From contig JAQWSZ010000035.1 in the NCBI GenBank assembly GCA_029242945.1, positions 12,695-76,694 on the forward strand: 64,000 nt of DNA, given 5' to 3'. Positions within the stretch are counted from its first letter, which is position 1; every line of letters starts with the position of its first letter. Source of the DNA: Gammaproteobacteria bacterium (GTDB lineage: Bacteria > Pseudomonadota > Gammaproteobacteria > Steroidobacterales > UBA11654). Shown piece after piece: positions 7,303 to 61,801 of the stretch. The notes beneath the pieces are model-generated. The model worked only from the letters and a program-made list of their open reading frames with translations, had not been told where the DNA came from and ran no database searches. The position numbers and the translations under genes were made by a program.

Positions 7303-8874
7303 ATGAACAAAGACAATTATCCAGAGATCGGAGGAAGATCGGCTAAAATAGCATTAGCACTATTGGTCATTGTCTATATTTTCAATTTTGTAGACAGACA
7401 AATATTATCTGTTTTGGCTGAAGAAATTAAAGCAGATCTTAACATCAGTGATAGTGATTTAGGGTTTCTATTTGGTACTGCATTTGCTGTCTTTTATTCT
7501 ATATTTGGGATACCTCTAGGTAAGCTTGCAGATGTCTGGTCAAGAAAAAATATACTGAGTATAGGTCTAGCAACGTGGAGTTTAATGACGGTCCTTTCTG
7601 GGACAGCTAAATCCTTTACTTCTTTATCCATATACAGGGTTGGTGTTGGGATCGGAGAATCGAGTGCAAGTCCTGCTTCTTATTCACTATTATCAGACTA
7701 CTTTTCACCAAAAATACGAACAACCATACTTGCGATTTATTCAAGTGGAGTCTACCTAGGAGCTGGTATTGGTTTATTTTTAGGTGGTTGGATTGTTGAA
7801 TTATGGTCATCAGCCTACCCTATATCAATTGATGCCCCTTTCGGACTAAAAGCATGGCAAGCAGCATTTGTGATTGTGGGTTTACCTGGAATATTATTAG
7901 CCTTCTTCACTTGGAATATTAAAGAACCTAAAAGGGGTGGAAGCGAGGGTATTGAAAGTCAAATTGAACCACATCCCTTTAGATTAATGCTTAAAGAATT
8001 TATAGGAATTTCTCCATTTGGCTTAATTACAACTAAAGAACCCATTAAACTACTCTCTATCAATGCTCTTATTGGAAGCATCATCAGTATGATTTGTTTT
8101 GGTCTGTATCGAATAACTGGTGATACAGTGCAATGGGTTGCATTTGGAATTGGAATATATTTTTTGACCTGCTGGATTCAGGGATTAAAAACGAGAGATC
8201 CTGTTACCTTTGAAATGATTTTTAAAACCAAGTCTTTCATACTCGTCGTTTTTGGATTTCCTTCTATCAGCTTTATCACCTATTCCATGGCTGCGTTTGG
8301 TCCTTCTTTTTATATGAGAAATTATGGAATCACTGAAGCGGAAGTTGCAACAATACTTGGATTGATTACAGCGGTTTCAGGATCTATCGGAGTCATTAGT
8401 GGGGGCATCATAGCTGATAAGCTTAGAGAGAAATACATCAATGGGAGATTGTATGTAGGATTTGCTGTAATAATCTTGGGTATACCTACAGCATTGGCAT
8501 TTTTATACAGCAAAAACCTCTATGCATCATATGTTTACTATGCTTTATTTCAAATAATCACTCCTATGTGGGTAGGCATTGCACCAGCAACTGTCTCTGA
8601 TCTAGTTCTTCCCAGAATGAGAGGGTTAGCCAGTGCGTTTTATCTGTTGATGGTGAGTATGATTGGCCTAGCTCTCGGGCCCTACTGTGTCGGTAAATTA
8701 AGTGACATTTATCAATCCACAGGGTATTCATCGGGTGAAGCATTAAAAACGGCCCTTGCTACAGGCTTACTGGCTCTTATTGTGACAGCTATTGCGTTAA
8801 CCTTTGCTTGTTATTACTTACCTCGGGATGAGGCGAGTAAAGTTGAGAGAGCGAAAGCTTTGGGAGAGCTATAA
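7303..8874 (+). CDS. MFS transporter
   Basis: 523 aa, about 12 or more hydrophobic helices, DRQ/GKLAD-type MFS loop motif (FNFVDRQILS, GKLADVWSRK). Confidence 0.8.
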   Translation: MNKDNYPEIGGRSAKIALALLVIVYIFNFVDRQILSVLAEEIKADLNISDSDLGFLFGTAFAVFYSIFGIPLGKLADVWSRKNILSIGLATWSLMTVLSGTAKSFTSLSIYRVGVGIGESSASPASYSLLSDYFSPKIRTTILAIYSSGVYLGAGIGLFLGGWIVELWSSAYPISIDAPFGLKAWQAAFVIVGLPGILLAFFTWNIKEPKRGGSEGIESQIEPHPFRLMLKEFIGISPFGLITTKEPIKLLSINALIGSIISMICFGLYRITGDTVQWVAFGIGIYFLTCWIQGLKTRDPVTFEMIFKTKSFILVVFGFPSISFITYSMAAFGPSFYMRNYGITEAEVATILGLITAVSGSIGVISGGIIADKLREKYINGRLYVGFAVIILGIPTALAFLYSKNLYASYVYYALFQIITPMWVGIAPATVSDLVLPRMRGLASAFYLLMVSMIGLALGPYCVGKLSDIYQSTGYSSGEALKTALATGLLALIVTAIALTFACYYLPRDEASKVERAKALGEL

Positions 8875-11490: not shown

Positions 11491-12801
11491 TTAATCTAAA
11501 TTATATCCACGTTCCCCATGCAATGTAATATCTAGGCCATCAGACTCTTGTTCTTCTGATACTCTTAAGCCCATAGTTTTATCGATGACTTTAAGAATTA
11601 TATAACTCACGCTGCCACAATAAACAATTGTCACTATGACTCCTATCATTTGTGCTAAAACTTGAGAACTGATTGTTCCATCTATGCCAGAACCTCCAAA
11701 TGTTGCTGATGAAAATACACCCGTTAGTATCGCTCCAACAATTCCCCCTACTCCATGAACACCAAAGACATCTAAAGAATCATCGTAGCCTAGTTTTCTT
11801 TTTAGAGATGTTGATGCAAAATAACAGACAACGCCAGATGCCAAACCTATAGCAATTGCACCTAATGGGCCGACACTTCCAGATGCTGGAGTTATAGCAA
11901 CTAAACCTGCAACAGCTCCTGTAATGATTCCTAATAGACTGGCTTTATTTGAAAATATTTTTTCCATTAATGCCCAGGTTAAAGCTGCTGCAGCTGTGGC
12001 TACTTGTGTCACAAGCATTGCCATAGCAGCAACTCCATCTGCAGCAAGTTCACTGCCTGCATTAAAGCCAAACCAACCTACCCAAAGCATGCATGCTCCA
12101 ATAAAGGATAAGGCTAAATTATGAGGTGCCATTGGTGTACGAGGATAACCAATCCTTGGACCAATCACTATACAAGCAACCAAAGCTGCTATACCAGCAT
12201 TGATATGAACAACAGTACCTCCAGCAAAATCAATAATGCCAAAATTACTCAAATAACCACCACCCCATACGTTATGACATATTGGTGCATAGACTAAAAT
12301 TAGCCATAATGCTGAGAAAACAGACATAGATGAAAACTTCATTCGGTCAGTAAATGCTCCAACGATTAAAGCAGGCGTAATTATTGCAAAAGTAGCTTGA
12401 AACATTACAAATAAACTTTCAGGAATGGTGCCTGAAACAGCATCAACTGTAATACCATTAAGAAACATGTTTCCAAAACCTCCCCAAAATGCATTCGGCT
12501 CTCCAAATGCGAGTGAGTAGCCAAAAACAACCCAAATTAATGTTGCAATACCTGCAATCGCAATACATTGTGCAAGTACGGAAAGAATATTTTTACTCCT
12601 AACTAGGCCTCCATAAAAAAGTGCTAAACCTGGAAGTGTCATAAATAAAACCAGTGCACTAGCTGTTAACATCCAAGATGTATCACCTGAGTCTAATTCA
12701 TCAGTGTAGCCAACTGTTGGTATCAAAATACCTACCAAACAAGCAAATAGCCCAAAACTAGTCATTAATTTTTTTAAATTTAATATTGTTGATTTGTCCA
12801 T
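11491..12801 (-). CDS. amtB: ammonium transporter AmtB
   Basis: Amt family motifs (DFAGGTVVHINAG, WFGFNAGS, GVHGVGG). Start set at the ATG at 12801, preceded by AGGAA. The track start at 12852 would overlap glnK. Confidence 0.9.
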   Translation of the reverse strand: MDKSTILNLKKLMTSFGLFACLVGILIPTVGYTDELDSGDTSWMLTASALVLFMTLPGLALFYGGLVRSKNILSVLAQCIAIAGIATLIWVVFGYSLAFGEPNAFWGGFGNMFLNGITVDAVSGTIPESLFVMFQATFAIITPALIVGAFTDRMKFSSMSVFSALWLILVYAPICHNVWGGGYLSNFGIIDFAGGTVVHINAGIAALVACIVIGPRIGYPRTPMAPHNLALSFIGACMLWVGWFGFNAGSELAADGVAAMAMLVTQVATAAAALTWALMEKIFSNKASLLGIITGAVAGLVAITPASGSVGPLGAIAIGLASGVVCYFASTSLKRKLGYDDSLDVFGVHGVGGIVGAILTGVFSSATFGGSGIDGTISSQVLAQMIGVIVTIVYCGSVSYIILKVIDKTMGLRVSEEQESDGLDITLHGERGYNLD

Positions 12802-12841
12802 AATCTTATTCCTGAATATTTTATTGCTGTATGTTGAATTC

Positions 12842-13213
<372 letters not shown>

Positions 13214-18569: not shown

Positions 18570-18683
18570 AAAAATACCAGCAATATGTTCTTGCCCACTA
18601 TTGATAATTTAAATCATAGCGCATTGACCCACATCAGCATATCTAATAATTTTTATAAAGAATGAATAGAGGCTAACTATAAT

Positions 18684-52052: not shown

Positions 52053-52436
52053 TTAGTGTCCTTCTAAAATAACAAAAGCTATTGATAATGGTGGTTCATC
52101 ACTAAAACTAACGTGTGATTTATCAATGCCTTCGTTCTTGAAAAGTGTTTGCATTTTTTTTGATAAAATCAATTTAGGTTGTCCAGAATCCAATCTAATA
52201 AATCCAAAGTCTTTCCAGGTAATTCCTTCAGAAAAACCAGTACCAAAAGCTTTGGCTGCAGCCTCTTTTCCTGCAAAACGGTTGGCTATGAAATGTACCT
52301 GATTCTTTTCATGATTAAATAACTCCATTTCTTCCGGGTGCAAAATTTTTTTTGCCAATCCATCTCCATATTTTTCATGCATTTTATGAATACGATCTAT
52401 ATTGACTATGTCAACACCAATGCCATATACATTCAT
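52053..52436 (-). CDS. acpS: holo-ACP synthase
   Basis: GIGVDIV N-terminus, FAGKEAAAKA block; follows pdxJ. Confidence 0.85.
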   Translation of the reverse strand: MNVYGIGVDIVNIDRIHKMHEKYGDGLAKKILHPEEMELFNHEKNQVHFIANRFAGKEAAAKAFGTGFSEGITWKDFGFIRLDSGQPKLILSKKMQTLFKNEGIDKSHVSFSDEPPLSIAFVILEGH

Positions 52437-53173
52437 TTTCTAGCCTTAATCAATATAGTTTGCATAGTTTTTACAGCTTCAGCGATCCCAATATCTAGAG
52501 ATTTTGCAATAATTGAATGTCCGATATTCAGTTCTTGTATTTCTTCAATCTTTGCAATTGGAGCTGTATTCTCATAGTGCAATCCATGGCCAGCATTCAC
52601 TCTTAGGCCTATTTTTTTAGCGTGTGATGCACACTCTTTAATTCTATTCAATTCATACTGTTGATCAGCAGGATTCAGACTGTCCGCATATGTGCCCGTA
52701 TGTATCTCTACTGCATCAGCTCCTGCCAATTGACTCGACTCAATTTGTTTAGGGTCAGGATCAACAAAGAATGAAACTCGTATTCCTGATTTTTTCATAC
52801 GCTCTGTTGCTATAGATAAGACATCCATTTGATTAAAGACATCTAAACCACCCTCTGTAGTTAGTTCGTCCCTGCTTTCTGGTACTAAACAACAATCATA
52901 AGGTTTGAGCGCACAAGCCATAGAAATCATCTCTTCTGTTAAGGCCATTTCAAGGTTAACCCTTGATTGTGAAATATTTATCAATCTTTCCACATCATGA
53001 TCTTGAATATGTCTTCTATCTTCTCTTAGATGAATAGTGATGCTGTCTGCACCATTTTTTTCTGCTATTAATGCAATCTCAACTGGATCTGGATAGTTAG
53101 TGCCTCTAGCCTGTCTTATCGTAGCTACATGATCAACATTAACACCTAATAAAATATTTTCTTTTTTGTTCAT
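52433..53173 (-). CDS. pdxJ: pyridoxine 5'-phosphate synthase
   Basis: LGVNVDHVATIRQARG, HLREDRRHI, EIHTG and NIGHSII blocks. Confidence 0.95.
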   Translation of the reverse strand: MNKKENILLGVNVDHVATIRQARGTNYPDPVEIALIAEKNGADSITIHLREDRRHIQDHDVERLINISQSRVNLEMALTEEMISMACALKPYDCCLVPESRDELTTEGGLDVFNQMDVLSIATERMKKSGIRVSFFVDPDPKQIESSQLAGADAVEIHTGTYADSLNPADQQYELNRIKECASHAKKIGLRVNAGHGLHYENTAPIAKIEEIQELNIGHSIIAKSLDIGIAEAVKTMQTILIKARK

Positions 53174-53236
53174 AATTCGATAGAAATAATTAACTAATAA
53201 TATATATTAGCAATAACTGATAATATTAATAAGCAA

Positions 53237-53266
53237 TTGTATTTATACAATAATTTTGAATATATA
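53237..53266 (+). promoter_or_regulatory. candidate sigma-70 promoter ahead of the riboswitch-like leader
   Basis: TTGTAT (53237-53242), 18 nt, TATATA (53261-53266). This would place the transcription start just before 53276. Such matches are common in AT-rich DNA. Confidence 0.2.
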
Positions 53267-53269
53267 GAA

Positions 53270-53364
53270 GTTAATCGTTCATTCACTCTAAATGTAGCAG
53301 TGAACGGAAGTAGACAATAAAGTTGAAGGAACGCTCTTAACCACTCTAAATGTAGAGTTAGGAG
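53270..53364 (+). promoter_or_regulatory. candidate glutamine riboswitch (glnA RNA motif) aptamer plus anti-SD expression platform
   Basis: Aptamer core spans 53276-53333. P1 is CGUUC/GAACG. A hairpin follows: UUCACU, 11-nt loop, AGUGAA. Then CGGAAGUAG-AC-AAUAAA-GUU-GAAGGAACG, with AGUA opposite GAA (E-loop-like). CUCUUAAC (53334-53341) is complementary to GUUAGGAG (53357-53364, includes the SD). Confidence 0.6.
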
Positions 53365-53370
53365 ATGAAA

Positions 53371-54771
53371 ATGAATAATTCAAGAATATTTTTGAATTCA
53401 ATAAACCAGATTTTTGATAAATCTGCCAAACTTCTAGGTCTGCCTGAAGACTTAGCTAATAAAATAAAACTAGCAAACTCAACCTATACAGTGAATTTTG
53501 GTGTTCGATTGAGAAATAAGCTGCATACATTCACAGGATTTAGATCCATTCATTCAGAGCATAATGAACCTGTAAAAGGAGGTATGCGATACTCTCTTGA
53601 TTCAACACAAGATGAAGTTGAAGCATTAGCAGCACTGATGACATATAAATGTTCACTAATGGAACTGCCTTTTGGTGGCTCTAAAGGTGCATTAATTATT
53701 GACCCAAACGCTTGGAATAAAAAAGAATTAGAAAAAATAACAAGAAGATTCACATCTGAACTAGCAAAAAGAAATCTAATTCATCCTTCACAGAATGTAC
53801 CAGCACCTGATATGGGTACTGATGAAAATGTTATGGCATGGATTGCTGATGAATACAGAAGATTGAATCCAACTGAAATGGACTCTCTAGCATGCGTTAC
53901 AGGGAAACCTATATCCAAAGGAGGTGTTCATGGAAGAAAAGAAGCCACAGGCAGAGGTGTGTTTTATGCTATAAAACAATTTTTAAAATATGAAAAAGAT
54001 TGCAAAAAGATAGGTCTTTCTCCGATCCTAGATGACCAAAAAATTATTATTCAAGGTTTTGGTAATGTTGGCTATCATGCAGCAAAACTACTCGAAGAAA
54101 ATGGGGCAAAAATTATCACTATCATTGAGCATGACGGTTCAATATCGAATGATAATGGTATTAATATTGATAACTTAAAAGAATACTTTGATAAAAAAAG
54201 AAAATTTAAAGGTTATAAAAATTATACGACAACGAGGAATAGATTTTTAAGTAAAAAATGCGACATATTAATACCAGCTGCAGTTGAAAATGTTATCAAT
54301 AAAAATAATGCTGAGAATATAAAAGCGAAATTAATTGTTGAGGCAGGCAATGGACCAGTTACGTCAATAGCTGATGAAATTCTTATAAAAAAAGGAATTA
54401 CCGTCATTCCTGATTTTTATGCGAATTCTGGAGGAGTCATAGTCTCTTATTTTGAATGGGTCAAAAATTTATCAAAAATGAGATATGGCCTGATGAATCA
54501 AAGGGATCAAGAAAATCGGCAATCAATTATGGTAAATGCTTTAGAAACAATGATTGAAAAAAACTTTCCAATTGAACTAAAAGAAGAAATTATTAAAGGC
54601 TCCACAGAAATAGATCTAGTCAGATCAGGACTGGAAGAAACAATGTCTTCTGGTTATTACCAAATACATGAGAAATTCCATTCGGATAAAAGAATTGATA
54701 ATTTAAGAACAGCAGCAATGATGATTGCTATACAAAAAGTAGCTGATTCCTATGACTATCTTGGGATATAG
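53371..54771 (+). CDS. Glu/Leu/Phe/Val dehydrogenase family protein, probable glutamate dehydrogenase
   Basis: Catalytic-Lys block PFGGSKGAL and NAD(P) fold GFGNVG. Start is either the ATG at 53365 or the one at 53371; 53371 has better spacing from AGGAG at 53360-53364. Confidence 0.8.
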   Translation: MNNSRIFLNSINQIFDKSAKLLGLPEDLANKIKLANSTYTVNFGVRLRNKLHTFTGFRSIHSEHNEPVKGGMRYSLDSTQDEVEALAALMTYKCSLMELPFGGSKGALIIDPNAWNKKELEKITRRFTSELAKRNLIHPSQNVPAPDMGTDENVMAWIADEYRRLNPTEMDSLACVTGKPISKGGVHGRKEATGRGVFYAIKQFLKYEKDCKKIGLSPILDDQKIIIQGFGNVGYHAAKLLEENGAKIITIIEHDGSISNDNGINIDNLKEYFDKKRKFKGYKNYTTTRNRFLSKKCDILIPAAVENVINKNNAENIKAKLIVEAGNGPVTSIADEILIKKGITVIPDFYANSGGVIVSYFEWVKNLSKMRYGLMNQRDQENRQSIMVNALETMIEKNFPIELKEEIIKGSTEIDLVRSGLEETMSSGYYQIHEKFHSDKRIDNLRTAAMMIAIQKVADSYDYLGI

Positions 54772-54913
54772 TTTCATCGAAGAGTTTAATTGCTTTGAAT
54801 AAAGAAACAATTTAATATTGCTATAGGATCCATAACTTCTCCTTCATGAGCATAAATGAAGTTAAAGCTGACTTTAGATCAATATAATTAAAGATTGTAT
54901 CTAAAAGAGAATT

Positions 54914-56497
54914 ATGAACTATTTGAAAAGCTTTGCAACGGTCTATCCACTAGATGGAATTAATGAAGACAAACTAGGTAAATGTCAAAATCTTCTGGAT
55001 GGAAAATGGATCAATGAGACTAACTACTTTGATAATATCCTAGATCCAATAACTGGAAAAAATTTCTTAGACATACCAAAAACAGAAGATATTTCTGGAT
55101 ACATAAACAGTCTAGGCATCTGCCCGAAAAGTGGACTACATAACCCATTAAAAAATAATGACCGGTATATTATGCTTGGCAATGTTTGCAGCAAAGCAGC
55201 ACACATATTACACGATAAAGAGGTGGAAACTTTTTTTGCACTTTTAATACAAAGAGTAATGCCAAAAACATTAAATCAATGTCTTGGTGAAGTAAGAGTT
55301 ACGAGAACATTTTTAGAAAATTTTGCAGGTGACGGTGTTAGATTTCTAGGCCGTGGTTTTTCTAATCCTGGAGATTACACAGGGCAAGAATCGTCGGGTT
55401 ATCGATGGCCATTTGGATCGGTAGTAATTATTACTCCTTTTAATTTTCCTTTAGAAATTCCAGTACTGCAGTTCCTAGGTGCCTTGTTTATGGGAAATAG
55501 ACCACTTGTCAAACCCGATGAAAAAGTTGGTATTGTTTTTGAACAGTTTTTAAGATTATTAATTTTTTGTGGACTTCCAAGTCAAGACTCAAACTTAATT
55601 TACTGCGATGGATCAACAATGGGTACTTTAATAAAGCAAGCCAAAAAAAATATTCGTATGATTCAATTCACAGGATCATCAAAAGTAGCACATCAAATTA
55701 TTCAAGAAATGGATGGAAAAGTTAAGATTGAAGATGCTGGCTTTGACTGGAAGATTATCGGTCCAGATTATGATCCACAATGGAGTGATTATGTAGCTTG
55801 GCAATGTGATGAAGATGCTTATAATGCTTCAGGACAAAAGTGTTCAGCTCAAAGTATTCTATTCGTTCATGAAAATTGGCAAGAAGACCTACTTCCAAAA
55901 ATTAAAACACTAGCTGAAAGAAGAAAACTTGATAATCTCAGTATAGGACCAGTGCTTACTTGGAATAATAATCAACTCTTTAATCACATCAATCAATTAT
56001 TAACTATACCTGATGCTGTCTGTCTATTTGGCAATGAACCATTGGAAAACCATAATATACCAACAAATTATGGAGCGATAAAACCAACAGCAATACAAAT
56101 ACCTATAGAGCATTTAATGACAGAATATTTTGATTTAATCACCACTGAAGTTTTTGGACCAATTCAAGTTATTATTTCATACAATAACGATTCATTACCT
56201 ATTGTACTTAAAGGATTAGAAAATATTTCTCATAATTTATCAGCAGCTATTGTTAGCAATGATTTACTCTTTCAGCAAGAAATATTAGGAAGCACCATCA
56301 ATGGAACAACTTATGTAGGAATGAGAGCTAGAACAACAGGTGCCCCACAAAATCATTGGTTTGGTCCAGCTGGTGATCCAAGGGCTGCAGGTATCGGAAC
56401 GATTGAAGCAATTGTCAATACCTGGAGCGGACATAGAGAGATTATTAAAGATATTGGTCCCATTGATTCTGATTGGAATATACCGGAGATAAACTAA
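54914..56497 (+). CDS. aldehyde dehydrogenase, probable 1-pyrroline-5-carboxylate/glutamate-semialdehyde dehydrogenase
   Basis: ALDH blocks including KIEDAGFDWK and the catalytic-Cys block SGQKCSAQS. Function inferred from coupling to the aminotransferase gene (TAATG overlap). Confidence 0.7.
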   Translation: MNYLKSFATVYPLDGINEDKLGKCQNLLDGKWINETNYFDNILDPITGKNFLDIPKTEDISGYINSLGICPKSGLHNPLKNNDRYIMLGNVCSKAAHILHDKEVETFFALLIQRVMPKTLNQCLGEVRVTRTFLENFAGDGVRFLGRGFSNPGDYTGQESSGYRWPFGSVVIITPFNFPLEIPVLQFLGALFMGNRPLVKPDEKVGIVFEQFLRLLIFCGLPSQDSNLIYCDGSTMGTLIKQAKKNIRMIQFTGSSKVAHQIIQEMDGKVKIEDAGFDWKIIGPDYDPQWSDYVAWQCDEDAYNASGQKCSAQSILFVHENWQEDLLPKIKTLAERRKLDNLSIGPVLTWNNNQLFNHINQLLTIPDAVCLFGNEPLENHNIPTNYGAIKPTAIQIPIEHLMTEYFDLITTEVFGPIQVIISYNNDSLPIVLKGLENISHNLSAAIVSNDLLFQQEILGSTINGTTYVGMRARTTGAPQNHWFGPAGDPRAAGIGTIEAIVNTWSGHREIIKDIGPIDSDWNIPEIN

Positions 56498-57714
56498 TGA
56501 GCGCCTCTAAACAACAATACTTGATAGACAAAGAATTGAACTTTGGACCTGATAACTATAAACCCATACCAGTAGTTTTAACCAAAGCTAAAGGAGTTTG
56601 GGTTTGGGATGTAGATGGAAATAAATATTTAGATATGATGTCTGCTTATTCTGCTGTCAGTCATGGACATTCTCACCCTGAACTACTCAAAGTTTTGCAT
56701 GAACAATCCAGTCGCTTAGCACTAACATCAAGAGCTTTCTATACTGATACTCTAGGCTCTTACTTGGAAAAAATTACCTCACTGAGTAATTTTGATATGG
56801 CACTTCCAATGAATTCAGGTGCGGAAGCAGTTGAAACCGCTATCAAGGCAGCTAGAAGATGGGGCTATCGTTCAAAAAATATTGCATCTGATAAAGCTGA
56901 GATTATAGTTGCTGATGGTAATTTTCATGGAAGAACAACCACCATTATAAGTTTCTCTAGTTCACCAAATTCAAAAGACGATTTTGGTCCACTCACATCA
57001 GGATTTGTTTCTGTTCAATTTGGTTCGTCTAAAGCCATCAAAGAAGCTATAAATGAAAATACAGCAGCTGTCTTAATTGAACCTATACAAGGCGAAGGTG
57101 GAATTATTGTACCCCCTGAAAACTACCTCTCCGAAATCAGAGACATTTGCACAAATAATAACATTCTTATGATACTTGACGAAGTACAATCAGGACTTGG
57201 CAGAACAGGTAAAATGTTTGCATTTGAACATGCAAATATTCAACCTGATGGACTAATACTTGGGAAAGCTCTAGGTGGTGGTTTTATGCCTGTTTCATGC
57301 TTTTTATCTACCAATGAAGTTATGCAATGGCTCACACCAGGTTCCCATGGTTCAACTTTCGGAGGTAATCCACTTGCAGCTGCTATTGGTAAAAGAGCTC
57401 TTGAGCTCCTTGAAGAAGAAAATTTAATTGAAAATAGCAGAATACTTGGTGAGTATTTTAAAAATGAACTCATTAATATGAAAAGCAAAACAATATTAGA
57501 TGTTAGAGGTAAGGGCCTTTGGATTGGAGTCCAAATGAATCCCAATTTTATCTCTGGTAAGGAGTTATCTAATTTACTCCTTAAAAAAGGTATTTTAGCT
57601 AAAGAAACACATGAAACAGTTATTCGTTTTGCTCCCCCACTAGTGATCTCAAAACAAGAAATTGATTGGGCGCTTGATACTATAAAAGAGATTCTTCAAG
57701 ATACTTCATCCTAA
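56497..57714 (+). CDS. rocD: ornithine aminotransferase (class III PLP aminotransferase)
   Basis: YKPIPVVLTKAKGVWVWDVDGNKYLDMMSAYSAVSHGH, DEVQSGLGRTGK and GSHGSTFGGNPLA blocks. Start at the ATG overlapping the ALDH stop, GGAG 10 nt upstream (the track starts at a TTG at 56473). Confidence 0.85.
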   Translation: MSASKQQYLIDKELNFGPDNYKPIPVVLTKAKGVWVWDVDGNKYLDMMSAYSAVSHGHSHPELLKVLHEQSSRLALTSRAFYTDTLGSYLEKITSLSNFDMALPMNSGAEAVETAIKAARRWGYRSKNIASDKAEIIVADGNFHGRTTTIISFSSSPNSKDDFGPLTSGFVSVQFGSSKAIKEAINENTAAVLIEPIQGEGGIIVPPENYLSEIRDICTNNNILMILDEVQSGLGRTGKMFAFEHANIQPDGLILGKALGGGFMPVSCFLSTNEVMQWLTPGSHGSTFGGNPLAAAIGKRALELLEEENLIENSRILGEYFKNELINMKSKTILDVRGKGLWIGVQMNPNFISGKELSNLLLKKGILAKETHETVIRFAPPLVISKQEIDWALDTIKEILQDTSS

Positions 57715-57733
57715 TTTATACAGAGCTTAAATC

Positions 57734-58630
57734 ATGTCTTTGCAATCAACCAATCATGTACTTTTGATTAAACCTGCTGAATTCTATTGTAATGAACAAA
57801 CAATTGAAACTAATCACTATCAAGAAATTAATAGCGAAAAAACTAAAGATGAGATATTACAAGAAGCATTAATAGAATTTACAGAATTCGAAAACATATT
57901 AAAAAGAAATAAAATAAAAGTAACTACTCTAATAGGACAAATAGGTTGTCCTGATAATATTTTTCCAAATTGGGCAGTGAGCTACGATGATCATACTATT
58001 GATATATTCAGTATGCTTGGCATGAATCGAAGACTAGAAAAATCTGAAAAACATATATCTTTTCTAAACCAAACCTACAACACAAATATTAATTATAGCA
58101 GTCTTGAAGATAAATCAATTTATCTAGAAGGAACTAGCAGTTTAGTACTAGATCGTGTTAATAAACATGCTTATATGGGAATTTCATCAAGATCAAATCC
58201 TGAGCTTGCAAACCAATGGTGTCAAGCTAGAGGTTATAAACTCATATATTTTGATACTATAAGTCATACTGGAAAGTCTATCTATCATACTGATGTAATG
58301 ATGTATATAGGCACAAAACTTGCAGTAATTTGCTCAGAATGCATAGCAGATGATTCTCAAGCCCTAGTATTGGAAAGACTTAGATCCACACACGATATTT
58401 TAGAAATATCCAATGAACAATTAGTTAGTTTTTGTGGGAATTGCATTGAAGTTTATGATGAAAATAATGAATCACATTTAATTATGTCCACAACAGCTTA
58501 CAACGCTTATAACAAAGAACAGAAAACAGTTCTTCTAAAGTATTATAAAAGTATTATCCATTCTGATCTTGAATCTATTGAGAAATATGGTGGAGGCTCA
58601 GCTCGATGTATGATCATGGAATTATTCTAG
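57734..58630 (+). CDS. pentein (guanidine-group-modifying enzyme) superfamily hydrolase, arginine-deiminase-related clade
   Basis: 298 aa. C-terminal nucleophile motif GGGSARCM, internal HTDV block, and an N-terminal LLIKPAEFYCNEQT start typical of small amidinotransferase-fold proteins. Confidence 0.6.
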   Translation: MSLQSTNHVLLIKPAEFYCNEQTIETNHYQEINSEKTKDEILQEALIEFTEFENILKRNKIKVTTLIGQIGCPDNIFPNWAVSYDDHTIDIFSMLGMNRRLEKSEKHISFLNQTYNTNINYSSLEDKSIYLEGTSSLVLDRVNKHAYMGISSRSNPELANQWCQARGYKLIYFDTISHTGKSIYHTDVMMYIGTKLAVICSECIADDSQALVLERLRSTHDILEISNEQLVSFCGNCIEVYDENNESHLIMSTTAYNAYNKEQKTVLLKYYKSIIHSDLESIEKYGGGSARCMIMELF

Positions 58631-59785
58631 ACTTAAAACCCTTTCATATAAATCAGGGTCAGTATCACCTTCTGTTGAATAGAACAGAACGTTTGATCTT
58701 TCATTAAGATTAAGCTCTTTCTTAATATGATCATAATCATTATTGGTGCAAATGGCATGTAAAAAACCAATAGGCACTGCTCCACTTTCTCCAGACACTA
58801 TCTTTTGATCTCCTTTGATTGGATTACCACAAATCTTCATTCCTTTGAATGCCACATCATCACTACATATGGCAAAATAATCAGCTAATTCTTTTATAAT
58901 ATTCCAAGCTAGTAGACTCGGCATACCGCATGACAATCCTGCCATTATTGTATTAAGTTCCTTTATCAAATGAGCACTGCCATCTCCCACTTTAATAGAA
59001 TTATAGAAACAAGCAGCACCATGGGGTTCAAGAATAATTAATTTAGGTTTGGGTTTGGGTTTAGATTGATTTATGAAATTTATTAATATTGATGCTGCAA
59101 AGGAGCCAACACCAGCTTGGACAATAATATGCGTTGGCCAATTATTATATTGTTTAATAAATTCTGTAACCATAGTTGAGTAACCCAGCATAATATTCTG
59201 TGGTATATCCAAATAGCCATTCCATGATGAATCTTGCAGTAATATCCAATTCTTTTCAGATGCCTTATTTTTTGTATATTTGACTGTCTCATCATAATTA
59301 AATTCCGTTATTTCAGCTGAGGCATCATTGTCTAAAATAGCATCTAGCCTATTCTTAGAAGTGCCTTTAGGCATATATACAATTGCCTTACACCCAAATT
59401 GCTTTGCCGTCCATGCAACAGCTCTTCCATGGTTCCCATCCGTAGCTGTTGTAAATGTAAGATTATTAATTTGGCCTGAATACTTCTTAATACCCTCAAA
59501 AGTTACATCATTTACATCAAGTTTTAAATATTTAACAATTTCAAGTGCCATGGCATAACTTGCACCTAGAACTTTGAAAGCATTTAGATTTAATCGAAAA
59601 CTTTCATCCTTAACTAAGCATTGATTGATACCAATACTTTTGGAAAAGTTTTTAAGTTCCACCAAAGGTGTAGGTTTATAGTTAGGCAAACTTTGATGAA
59701 ATTTAAATGCTAATTCACTACTCCAATTTAAATTGAAGTTTTTATTCTTAAAGGGATTAGAAATACAATCGATTTGGTGATTCAA
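58622..59785 (-). CDS. diaminopropionate ammonia-lyase (DpaL/YgeX)-family PLP enzyme
   Basis: FHQSLPNYKPTPLVEL...VKDESFRLNLNAFKVLGASYA parallels the E. coli YgeX N-terminal region including the PLP lysine. TTG start 10 nt after the upstream stop. Confidence 0.7.
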   Translation of the reverse strand: MNHQIDCISNPFKNKNFNLNWSSELAFKFHQSLPNYKPTPLVELKNFSKSIGINQCLVKDESFRLNLNAFKVLGASYAMALEIVKYLKLDVNDVTFEGIKKYSGQINNLTFTTATDGNHGRAVAWTAKQFGCKAIVYMPKGTSKNRLDAILDNDASAEITEFNYDETVKYTKNKASEKNWILLQDSSWNGYLDIPQNIMLGYSTMVTEFIKQYNNWPTHIIVQAGVGSFAASILINFINQSKPKPKPKLIILEPHGAACFYNSIKVGDGSAHLIKELNTIMAGLSCGMPSLLAWNIIKELADYFAICSDDVAFKGMKICGNPIKGDQKIVSGESGAVPIGFLHAICTNNDYDHIKKELNLNERSNVLFYSTEGDTDPDLYERVLSLE

Positions 59786-59795
59786 AATAAATACT

Positions 59796-60764
59796 CTATT
59801 TTTTAAACTGATTGGCTAGCAAACAAAGAATTTCATACATCATAGTCGCGCCTACAAGAGCTGTGTTACCAGTCTGATCATAGGGTGGTGCAACCTCAAC
59901 TACATCTCCCCCAATAAAATTCAATCCGTTTAATCCTCTTAAAAATTGTTGCGCCTCCAAAGTAGTAATACCTCCAACTTCGGGAGTACCAGTGCCAGGT
60001 GCATAAACAGGATCCAATCCATCAACATCAAAAGATAAATATACAGGGCCATTACCAACAACCTTAATTGCTTCTTTAATGACTTCTTTTACACCAAGAT
60101 CAGAAAATTCCTCAATAAAAATGACTCGCATTCCTGTTGAGAGAGAGAAATCAATTCCATCTGTGAAGTTTTGTGCACCTCTAATGCCGATCTGTATCGT
60201 TCTTTTAGGGTCAAGTAAGCCAGATTCAACTGCCGATCTAAATGGTGAACCATGATGAAACTTTGAACCCCAGATTTCTCCCCAAGTATCAGTATGAGCA
60301 TCTATATGGATCATGCCTATTGGATCACCTTTAACTAAACCCTTAAATATAGGATAAGTTATAGAATGATCTCCTCCAGCAGATAAAGGAATAACTCCAG
60401 CATTCTGCAAACTACTATAGAATTCAACAATATCATCATGGACAGATTGATGATCAAATGGCTTAGTAAACGAAACATCGCCAACATCAGCAATGCTAGC
60501 AATGTCATAAGGATTGATCCTTGTAACATGATGTATGTTTCGCATTAGAGTTGATTGATTTCTTATTTCTCTAGGGCCATGCCTGGCTCCTGCTCTATTG
60601 GTTACACCACCATCATATGGAACACCAACCATAGCTATATCTAAATCATCTAAAGAATCAGCTAGTGGTGTCCTCATAAATGTAGGTATACCTGAGTAAC
60701 GTGGCTCTTGATTAGCAAAATACTCTTTACCAGTAACTGGGGATATATATTTTTTATGTTTCAT
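59796..60764 (-). CDS. ureohydrolase of the agmatinase/guanidino-acid hydrolase family
   Basis: Mn-binding blocks GGDHSITYP, IHIDAHTDTW, SFDVDGLDPVYAPGTGTPEVGG. Confidence 0.8.
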   Translation of the reverse strand: MKHKKYISPVTGKEYFANQEPRYSGIPTFMRTPLADSLDDLDIAMVGVPYDGGVTNRAGARHGPREIRNQSTLMRNIHHVTRINPYDIASIADVGDVSFTKPFDHQSVHDDIVEFYSSLQNAGVIPLSAGGDHSITYPIFKGLVKGDPIGMIHIDAHTDTWGEIWGSKFHHGSPFRSAVESGLLDPKRTIQIGIRGAQNFTDGIDFSLSTGMRVIFIEEFSDLGVKEVIKEAIKVVGNGPVYLSFDVDGLDPVYAPGTGTPEVGGITTLEAQQFLRGLNGLNFIGGDVVEVAPPYDQTGNTALVGATMMYEILCLLANQFKK

Positions 60765-60823
60765 ATATTTACATTCTATAAAGATTTAAATTAAGATCAA
60801 TTTTTAAAAGATATTTTGCAATT

Positions 60824-61042
60824 ATGAAATATAAAAAATTAGATCTTCATGGAATTAGACATGGTGATGTTGATCGGTTAGTGGAAAACTTTGTTTTAAT
60901 GAATCAAAGTAAAACTCCATTAGAAATTGTCTGCGGAAATAGTAAAAAGATGATCGATCTTGTAAATTCTGTTTTAAAGAGAATTAGTTGTGAAAGCTAT
61001 GAGATGGTTCAATATGGAGTTTTAGTAATAAGAAAAGTCTAA
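60824..61042 (+). CDS. minimal standalone Smr-domain protein
   Basis: 72 aa with LDLHG motif at the N-terminus. Confidence 0.55.
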   Translation: MKYKKLDLHGIRHGDVDRLVENFVLMNQSKTPLEIVCGNSKKMIDLVNSVLKRISCESYEMVQYGVLVIRKV

Positions 61043-61075
61043 TGAATTAAGTATTAGAGAAATAAATATTTTTAT

Positions 61076-61801
61076 TTAGCCTTTAGATGTAATCGATTTA
61101 AAAACTTTTTTACTATTGAGCTCTTTGCCTGCAAGATGATGTTCTATAGATAAGCGAAGAATACTCTTAGCAGCTCTTAATGTATCCGCATTAGAAAAAT
61201 CTAGATTTTTAATAGCTTTAATTTCTGAACCTTTAACAATATCTCTCTTATTATTAATATTACTTGCTAACCTAAAACCCTGCTCAGCATGAAAAATATA
61301 CTCAAGTTCTTCTTCAATATTTTTTGAACTCATAGCTTCCGTATCAAAATTGATGGCGTATCCTATTTCAGATAGCATAAATAATTCAAAGTTTCTTAAA
61401 GTTATCTCAATATTTTCTGCTTCAGAAAGGTTTGTAATGGCTCTAGAATATTCAATGAAAAGATCAGGATAAGGATCCGTTATTGTTAAAAAAGATAAAA
61501 TCAATTCATTCAGGTAAAAAGCAGACATTAAATGTTTGCCTTGTATCTTTTCAATATAAATACCAGTTACCTCTACCTCTCTAAGAGTCTTCAACTGGGA
61601 TTTTCCTGACCATGAAACTCGGATTGGTAGAAATGGTTGAAGAAAAGATTTAAATTTTGATTTTGGTCTTTTAGATCCTTTAGCAATTAAGTCAACCCTC
61701 CCATAACTTTGAGTAAAGAGGTTGATGATCTGACTGGTTTCTGAATAAGGTCTATGATGAAGCAAATATGCTGGTTCATGTTCAATGATTCGATTGGTCA
61801 T
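61076..61801 (-). CDS. recO: DNA repair protein RecO
   Basis: N-terminal OB-fold region (AYLLHHRPYSETSQII); position after era. Confidence 0.85.
   Translation of the reverse strand: MTNRIIEHEPAYLLHHRPYSETSQIINLFTQSYGRVDLIAKGSKRPKSKFKSFLQPFLPIRVSWSGKSQLKTLREVEVTGIYIEKIQGKHLMSAFYLNELILSFLTITDPYPDLFIEYSRAITNLSEAENIEITLRNFELFMLSEIGYAINFDTEAMSSKNIEEELEYIFHAEQGFRLASNINNKRDIVKGSEIKAIKNLDFSNADTLRAAKSILRLSIEHHLAGKELNSKKVFKSITSKG

Follow-up and report, generated by a model that had tools for sequence, protein, structure and literature searches.

In Bacillus subtilis, the arginase pathway comprises the arginase RocF, the ornithine aminotransferase RocD, the pyrroline-5-carboxylate (P5C) dehydrogenase RocA and the glutamate dehydrogenase RocG; it is controlled by RocR and sigma-54 and is accompanied by a permease. 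The same ornithine-to-2-oxoglutarate chain, likewise clustered, was identified in a 64,000-nucleotide stretch (hereafter, the window) from an uncultured gammaproteobacterium (contig JAQWSZ010000035.1 of assembly GCA_029242945.1, positions 12,695 to 76,694), where it forms part of a block of seven genes lying between recO and pdxJ. The ornithine aminotransferase (OAT) of the window falls in the same equivalog family as that of B. subtilis (TIGR01885). The two systems differ in that the window has a pentein as the entry enzyme instead of an arginase, an ALDH12-type rather than a RocA-type P5C dehydrogenase, and a GLUD-type glutamate dehydrogenase (GDH). In place of RocR/sigma-54 control, there is a glutamine riboswitch on gdh only, and the block has no permease.

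The site of the block is itself well described in Escherichia coli K-12, where lepA-lepB-rnc-era-recO-pdxJ-acpS are contiguous, as the original prediction had stated for lepB to acpS, and recO and pdxJ are separated by only 11 nt. The flanking genes of the window have the same order and orientation as this cluster, which lacks the ~7.9 kb and seven genes that the window carries between recO and pdxJ.

The pentein resembles CtlX, which was described as a putative citrullinase on the basis of genetics (Price et al., 2022; PMC9007349). In CtlX, two Asn residues, within FPNN and HTN motifs, stand in place of the two Asp residues with which arginine deiminase-like enzymes bind guanidinium, and genes of this family adjoin ornithine-catabolic genes in cultured bacteria (PMC9007349). 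The window pentein belongs to the same family, neighbours an ornithine-catabolic gene and carries the Cys/His catalytic motifs; it differs in having H-T-D rather than H-T-N and in being paired with OAT, where CtlX is paired with ocd or aruFG.

Type-1 glutamine riboswitches switch expression on upon glutamine binding, and a 2018 review considered the class to be restricted to cyanobacteria (PMC6316151). Weinberg et al. (2010) listed PII, glutamine synthetase, GOGAT and Amt among the genes associated with glnA RNAs, and GDH was not listed (PMC2864571). Like the cyanobacterial representatives, for example the leader of Synechocystis gifB, the RNA in the window is a 5' leader located just before a Shine-Dalgarno sequence in a context of nitrogen metabolism; unlike them, it occurs in a heterotrophic gammaproteobacterium and precedes a gene for a catabolic GDH. 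A further counterpart is the 3-guanidinopropionase GpuA of Pseudomonas aeruginosa, which shares ~60% identity and the Mn-binding motifs with the ureohydrolase of the block. The window gene differs from gpuA in being co-operonic with dpaL and in having neither a GpuR-type regulator nor a GpuP-type permease nearby.

Our reading, to which we assign a probability of roughly 0.8 as a whole, is that the 7.9-kb interval is a chromosomal cluster for the catabolism of nitrogen-rich compounds, fixed in an uncultured, low-GC marine gammaproteobacterial clade. The break between recO and pdxJ is then an ancient rearrangement or insertion, a synapomorphy of the whole clade that was inherited vertically without recent acquisition. 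In the subclade of the window, the block would comprise three transcription units, namely riboswitch-gdh, aldehyde dehydrogenase (ALDH)-OAT-pentein with its own leader, and ureohydrolase-dpaL, plus a small unrelated open reading frame (ORF). The cluster is of an ornithine-catabolic type and its RNA sensor is of a known riboswitch class, both being kinds that are already known.

Conservation and age of the recO-pdxJ block

An ORF map and family scans placed seven genes between pdxJ (start 53173) and recO (end 61076). This reproduced the gene layout of the original prediction, whose gene names proved to be broadly right, along with two of its finer details: the overlap of the ALDH stop and OAT start codons in TAATG (56495-56499) and the 19 nt between OAT and the pentein gene. 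The same gene order was observed in two metagenome contigs that are ~100% identical to the window (L025 and L020), and 18 further, more diverged contigs showed the same layout over whatever part each of them covers. Given that independently assembled contigs repeat the layout, the block is not a mis-assembly. The DNA around the block has a low GC content (~0.30-0.37), and the window elsewhere contains the core chromosomal genes ftsK, rne, serS, mfd and amtB. All of the block proteins are already held under routine names and with consecutive accessions in public records of several metagenome-assembled genomes (MAGs).

Relatives were obtained from a scan of one genome per species, which yielded ten with RecO proteins 58-83% identical to that of the window, and additional related contigs were collected via the pentein and via the riboswitch sequence. 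In all ten species-level relatives, ureohydrolase-dpaL and pentein-OAT-ALDH were located between recO and pdxJ, within the extent of each contig. Complete junctions containing the block were found in nine related loci (L001, L002, L007-L010, L013, L014 and L025), and the partial views available in 11 more (L003-L006 and L019-L024 among them) agreed with them. The flanking pdxJ product is 73-89% identical to its counterparts in the relatives.

The composition of the block was compared with that of the remainder of the window. The GC content at third codon positions (GC3) of the block was 0.19-0.24, against 0.233 ± 0.032 in 52 background genes, and its codon log-likelihood ranged from -0.86 to -0.94, against a background of -0.934 ± 0.069. 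Tetranucleotide frequencies of the block correlated with those of the whole window at r = 0.9866, which is within the window-wide range. Identity at fourfold degenerate sites was ~0.5 relative to L001 and L002, for block genes and flanks alike. Relative to L007-L009 these sites were saturated at ~0.3-0.45, the block again equalling the flanks, with gdh at 0.38-0.40. Scans of the borders revealed neither flanking repeats nor a tRNA gene, and the family scans detected no integrase or transposase among the ORFs.

The block had been proposed to be acquired, and comparison of the junction and of composition speaks against this. Every relative reaching the junction carries the block, only the gdh cassette being patchy; GC3, codon usage and tetranucleotides all lie in the background range; and the divergence is that of the flanks, with no signatures of mobility. 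A recent horizontal transfer was therefore rejected on composition, synonymous sites, repeat and tRNA scans, and synteny in relatives. The clade-wide occurrence, native composition and flank-like divergence together indicate that the insertion is old relative to the E. coli gene order, and the splitting of the junction is as such a case of ordinary gene-order evolution. A broken textbook adjacency need not imply horizontal transfer; here, it represents a stable, lineage-defining order in an abundant uncultured marine clade.

The riboswitch-gdh cassette

A type-1 glutamine riboswitch aptamer (glnA RNA; RF01739) was detected upstream of gdh with a score of 55.7 bits against a gathering threshold of 35, covering model positions 1-53 of 53, and the copies in L007, L008 and L009 scored 55.9-57.9 bits. 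The aptamer and its expression platform, ~75 nt in total, are nearly invariant in spite of the saturation of fourfold sites in the neighbouring genes, which is good evidence that the RNA is functional. Between positions 53100 and 61150, RF01739 was the only structured RNA recovered from Rfam at E <= 5, the remaining matches being chance-level eukaryotic microRNA and long non-coding RNA models; a search of the whole window gave no second RF01739 that reached the gathering threshold.

In the platform, the Shine-Dalgarno sequence of gdh, UAGGAG (53359-64), has a predicted pairing partner in CUCUUA (53334-39), located directly 3' of aptamer stem P1. This helix is predicted to stack on a hairpin formed by ACUCUA and UAGAGU. 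The minimum free energy structure of the platform coincides with the centroid (-10.4 kcal/mol, z = -2.4), and its sequence is identical in the window and L007-L009. The platform 63-mer occurs on seven metagenome contigs, and the exact platform was seen at this locus only. An exact 14-nt direct repeat, CACTCTAAATGTAG, was also noted in the loop of the variable hairpin of the aptamer and in the platform hairpin; in L007-L009 the loop copy is altered and the platform copy is preserved exactly.

The divergent pdxJ/gdh promoter region contains an AT-rich dyad, recognised in an alignment of the spacers. It is degenerate in the window and is a near-palindromic 20-mer in L007-L009 and L014 (L007 at ~18633-18652; L014 in the pdxJ-ALDH spacer), with a consensus of approximately CTGATAATATATATTAYCAG, from which L009 and L014 deviate by 2-3 mismatches. 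This dyad may be an operator for some regulator. Scans for promoters and terminators were uninformative in such AT-rich DNA (38 matches, with 37.5 expected).

RF01739 co-occurs strictly with gdh across the related loci. The two are present in the window, L007-L009, L019, L021-L023 and L025, and both are absent from L001, L002, L010, L013 and L014, that is, from five of the nine complete related junctions. The breakpoints differ, L014 keeping the pdxJ-proximal promoter segment and L001 and L002 keeping the ~130-nt ALDH leader, which points to independent losses of gdh. This pattern indicates repeated loss of a dispensable cassette, which is the sole part of the block that comes and goes. Since gdh has diverged to the same degree as its neighbours, the cassette is old and has not spread recently. 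The riboswitch-gdh cassette thus constitutes an on/off polymorphism between lineages. Other records of RF01739 come from MAGs of SAR86 and from marine phages (PMC12379486; PMC9004378), and a 2025 long-read study placed it inside population deletion variants of SAR86 (PMC12379486). These variants fit the cassette pattern and may concern the same locus.

The original prediction had assigned the block as a whole its own RNA sensor. A riboswitch is indeed located upstream of gdh, but it tracks gdh, and ALDH-OAT-pentein has a leader of its own. Control of ALDH-OAT-pentein by the riboswitch was rejected for the genomes without gdh, given the fact that L001, L002, L010, L013 and L014 have no RF01739. 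The riboswitch was likewise rejected as a general partner of this type of GDH, as three tested homologues (59-70% identical) in other contexts had none upstream.

The gdh reading frame starts at an ATG 6 nt after AGGAG, and an identical 466-aa protein exists in public databases, with the identical GDH being present on 96 contigs. The closest relatives of solved structure are all glutamate dehydrogenases, with 365-371 bits over residues 28-467, which includes the C-terminal region, and the same holds for all 45 Protein Data Bank (PDB) matches at E <= 1e-30. The protein scores below the NCBIfam equivalog cutoffs (340 vs 620) because those models cover archaeal types. By homology, the gdh product is a GLUD-type (mitochondrial-like) hexameric glutamate dehydrogenase. 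The GDH is GLUD1-like through the antenna region and the ALDH resembles plant ALDH12, so that the two plus-strand enzymes are nearest to eukaryotic organellar types.

The GDH would deaminate glutamate to 2-oxoglutarate and ammonium. In the predicted fold, the 3' tail of the aptamer masks the gdh Shine-Dalgarno sequence, and by analogy with the cyanobacterial type-1 riboswitch, only high glutamine would allow translation of the enzyme. Amino-acid carbon may in this way be burnt only in the nitrogen-replete state. Such a cassette offers a simple model for RNA-based balancing of carbon and nitrogen, and it shows a riboswitch class long held to be cyanobacterial in association with a heterotroph's catabolic enzyme. 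Elsewhere in the window, amtB is preceded by an upstream gap of 455 nt. Ammonium transporters are a classic association of glnA RNAs in environmental sequences.

Predicted enzymes and their substrates

The chain from ornithine through glutamate semialdehyde/P5C and glutamate to 2-oxoglutarate, as originally proposed, is chemically coherent and its genes have an operon-like spacing. The ALDH aligned with maize ALDH12 (6d97) at 643 bits and ~58% identity over its full length (residues 5-525 vs 27-545), and the alignment contained the motifs KIEDAGFDWK and SGQKCSAQS, the latter with the presumed catalytic Cys. Its JGI name is 1-pyrroline-5-carboxylate dehydrogenase. Judged by these matches, it is an ALDH12-type glutamate-gamma-semialdehyde/P5C dehydrogenase rather than a generic aldehyde dehydrogenase. 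The OAT passed TIGR01885 with 522.6 bits against a cutoff of 378.4, and scored 542.4 bits with NF003145, which is under the stricter cutoff of 656 for that model.

The 133-nt ALDH leader has its homologue in L001 and L002, both of which lack gdh, in the spacer between pdxJ and ALDH. The predicted RNA fold of the gdh-ALDH spacer was no better than that of shuffled sequences (z = -0.21), and no Rfam match was obtained. The leader includes a hairpin, CTTCAT...ATGAAG. It also contains UUCUC, a possible pairing partner for the GAGAA in the weak ribosome-binding site of ALDH. In L007-L009, ALDH follows gdh by ~45 nt, which makes co-transcription likely there.

In this unit, the pentein would yield ornithine by hydrolysing an amino acid with a ureido or guanidino group, namely citrulline or possibly arginine. 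From their families, OAT is expected to convert ornithine and 2-oxoglutarate into glutamate semialdehyde/P5C and glutamate, and ALDH12 to oxidise the semialdehyde to glutamate. The two enzymes would thus turn ornithine and 2-oxoglutarate into two glutamates. The module had further been called self-contained, which it is not, since the block has neither a transporter nor a protein regulator.

The pentein scored 282.8 bits (E = 2.8e-84) with the CtlX model NF046062, below its cutoff of 334, and 252.8 bits with PF19420; the Pfam model that it matches is named DDAH_eukar. Among 121 orthologues, the motifs CPDNI[FY]PNW, YH[ST]D and GGGSARCM are invariant, as are the catalytic C292 (of GGGSARC) and H185 of the pentein fold. 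The double-Asn signature of CtlX (FPNN and HTN) is not found, the pentein having [FY]PNW and H-[S/T]-D instead. Of 150 family representatives at 50% clustering, 137 had HTN and 14 had H-T-D or H-A-D, and the window pentein groups with the H-T-D proteins. Scores with the CtlX model were 278-295 bits for the H-T-D representatives and 313-422 bits for the H-T-N representatives. We consider the pentein to be, as far as its sequence indicates, a sister subfamily of CtlX of the H-[S/T]-D type. Its gene adjoins OAT, from which it is argued that the product is ornithine, and the substrate is presumed to be citrulline or arginine.

A sequence search of the PDB with the pentein returned nothing, even at E <= 10. 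Its AlphaFold2 model (predicted local distance difference test, pLDDT, 85.9) was closest in fold to the arginine dihydrolase domains of ArgZ/AgrE (PDB 6juy and 6lrf) of the cyanobacterial ornithine-ammonia cycle, with template modelling (TM) scores of 0.67-0.80, followed by DDAH-1. ArgZ also makes ornithine. The two differ in that the window pentein is a single domain of 298 aa and the cyanobacterial enzymes are multidomain proteins of ~700 aa, and at 14-18% identity the comparison is one of overall fold.

It is possible, though doubtful, that the pentein is no citrullinase but acts on a guanidino substrate (arginine or methylarginine) as a single-domain arginine dihydrolase or an enzyme of the deiminase type, in which case the ALDH-OAT-pentein unit would be an arginine-to-glutamate route without arginase. 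The H-[S/T]-D motif retains the Asp of guanidino-acting penteins that is Asn in CtlX (PMC9007349), all H-T-D representatives fall under the CtlX cutoff while four of five tested H-T-N representatives exceed it, and the structural ranking just described points in the same direction. Against it, the pentein shares FPNW as its first motif with the H-T-N majority and so lacks the first Asp, and the low identity applies to ArgZ and DDAH alike, overall folds being what was compared. In addition, CtlX itself is known from genetics. The H-T-D subfamily is a concrete target for settling the function of CtlX-like enzymes.

The ureohydrolase is ~60% identical over its full length to P. aeruginosa GpuA (3nip), with 375.5 bits, compared with 291.6 for the guanidinobutyrase GbuA, at most 209.5 for agmatinases and at most 92.7 for arginases. 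It carries the Mn motifs GGDHS, DAHTD and SFDVDGLD, and its JGI name is guanidinopropionase. A similar level of identity (~60%) to a Pseudomonas guanidino-acid hydrolase rightly predicted the activity of human AGMAT (PMC9772407). The enzyme is expected to be a GpuA-type guanidino-acid hydrolase yielding an omega-amino acid and urea. The dpaL-like product scored 468.5 bits with NF006058 (cutoff 276), 423.9 with TIGR01747 (cutoff 274) and 453.7 with TIGR03528, the last being below its cutoff of 532. With Salmonella DAPAL (5ygr) it aligned at 325 bits, and the NAFK, TATDGNHGR and LLQD motifs are conserved. By these matches, it belongs to the 2,3-diaminopropionate (DAP) ammonia-lyase family, whose members yield pyruvate and ammonia.

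The dpaL-like gene and the pentein gene converge and share 9 nt, and the ureohydrolase gene lies 10 nt upstream of dpaL in the window and 10-17 nt upstream, co-directionally, in every relative. All three genes had been placed at the feeding end of the ornithine route. The pentein keeps this position as a presumed ornithine producer, but the ureohydrolase and DpaL do not give ornithine. These two would act as a separate nitrogen-scavenging pair, the former freeing urea from a guanidino acid and the latter pyruvate and ammonia from DAP, with products that stay outside the ornithine route.

An alternative, which we regard as unlikely, is that the pair forms one route, in which 2-amino-3-guanidinopropionate, or another alpha-amino guanidino acid like it, is hydrolysed to DAP and urea, and DAP is then cleaved to pyruvate and two NH3. 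The close, co-directional spacing in every relative suits this route, as does the chemical reasoning that the proposed starting compound is the GpuA substrate with an added alpha-amino group and that its hydrolysis would give exactly what DpaL uses. Outside the clade, however, the ureohydrolase was linked to dpaL in none of three contexts. These homologues from other taxa, 67-71% identical, adjoin transporters or class-III aminotransferases, contexts that fit the conversion of guanidinopropionate to beta-alanine. A literature search found no paper tying 2-amino-3-guanidinopropionate to DAP metabolism.

An improbable extension of both alternatives would turn the cluster into a salvage system, gated by glutamine, for the nitrogen of guanidino and ureido compounds, combining an H-T-D pentein acting as an arginine/methylarginine dihydrolase with the two-step GpuA-like/DpaL route via DAP. 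If this were true, the cluster would hold two undescribed activities and the pentein would feed OAT directly. The type-1 glutamine riboswitch would be the only regulator, deciding whether glutamate is retained for its nitrogen or burnt by the mitochondrial-type GDH.

Weight of the interpretation and remaining features

Several points weigh against the reading of the block as an old, vertically inherited catabolic cluster of three units. The age and direction of the rearrangement rest on E. coli and on general knowledge of other Gammaproteobacteria, and the one Francisellaceae contig (L011) stops at recO and so supplies no outgroup state. Enzyme activities, transcription units and ligand binding are predicted across the block. 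The pentein scores too low for the CtlX equivalog and carries a different residue at one proposed substrate-binding position, which makes the assignment of the entry substrate tentative, and a transporter is absent from the block. The ON direction of the riboswitch is taken by analogy, and covariation cannot support the platform because the platform is invariant. Lastly, the tight, clade-specific pairing of the gpuA-like gene and dpaL is unexplained if their substrates are unrelated.

The least probable explanation is a horizontally acquired, self-contained arginine/ornithine/guanidino-to-2-oxoglutarate island that brings an RNA sensor governing all of its genes; the contiguous junction of E. 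coli, the functionally related genes on both strands and the lineage-dependent content of the site (the gdh cassette, an extra gene in L013) would suit it, but it is opposed by the presence of the block in all sampled relatives, the native composition and flank-like synonymous divergence, the lack of att-like repeats, tRNA gene or integrase, a riboswitch that follows gdh only and two enzymes (GpuA-like and DpaL) that do not lead to ornithine, and its recent-event version is largely refuted.

Under the preferred reading of a vertically inherited cluster, the gene content hints at streamlined heterotrophs that harvest citrulline or arginine, ornithine, guanidino acids and diaminopropionate. The remaining interest is moderate and lies in the polymorphism of the riboswitch-GDH cassette in a heterotroph and in the uncharacterised H-T-D pentein subfamily.

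Table 1. Positions of the genes and sequence elements discussed, in window coordinates.
Feature	Coordinates	Strand	Basis
amtB	11491-12852	-	
pdxJ, housekeeping flank	52433-53173	-	NF003623 359.9 bits; PF03740; acpS beyond
AT-rich dyad	53194-53213		spacer alignment
Glutamine riboswitch aptamer	53274-53337	+	RF01739
14-nt repeat, aptamer loop copy	53284-53297		exact repeat
Expression platform	53334-53364	+	predicted pairing
14-nt repeat, platform hairpin copy	53342-53355		exact repeat
gdh	53371-54771	+	PF02812 + PF00208
ALDH leader	54781-54913	+	homology to spacer of L001 and L002
ALDH12-type dehydrogenase (putative)	54914-56497	+	match to maize ALDH12 6d97
OAT, rocD-type	56497-57714	+	TIGR01885
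CtlX-like pentein	57734-58630	+	NF046062 (below cutoff); PF19420
dpaL-like	58622-59785	-	NF006058
gpuA-like arginase-fold ureohydrolase	59796-60764	-	similarity to 3nip
72-aa LDLHG ORF	60824-61042	+	kept across relatives
recO, housekeeping flank	61076-61801	-	TIGR00613 117.6 bits; RecO_N + RecO_C; then era, rnc, lepB

The 72-aa ORF between the ureohydrolase gene and recO was found in 12 of the 12 relatives covering the locus, at 58-83% identity. It contains an LDLHG motif and scored 12-14 bits with Pfam Smr (PF01713), under the gathering threshold of 25.7. A single-sequence AlphaFold2 model had a pLDDT of 80.8, and its top three PDB folds in Foldseek were Smr domains (TM 0.63-0.70, E ~0.05-0.1). 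From this model, the ORF looks like a minimal stand-alone Smr-like protein beside a recombination gene, and it is probably unrelated to the catabolic set.

Some variation was observed among the related contigs. Split or frameshifted matches to dpaL, ALDH, recO or the ureohydrolase were found in L001 (12042-13197), L007 (11997-13297), L010 (15286-16865 and 10001-10707) and L013 (10158-11034); these could be MAG assembly errors or true pseudogenisation. On an unrelated marine single-cell contig carrying a GDH homologue (L027), a SAM-I/IV riboswitch was detected on the minus strand (2608-2705, 71 bits), with phage-like and Fic genes adjoining; it has no connection with the block. L013 also carries, between the pentein gene and dpaL (7313-8782, plus strand), an extra gene for a 489-aa D-aminoacylase-like amidohydrolase with 244 bits to PDB 1m7j, which suggests that the site gathers differing hydrolases of amino-acid derivatives.

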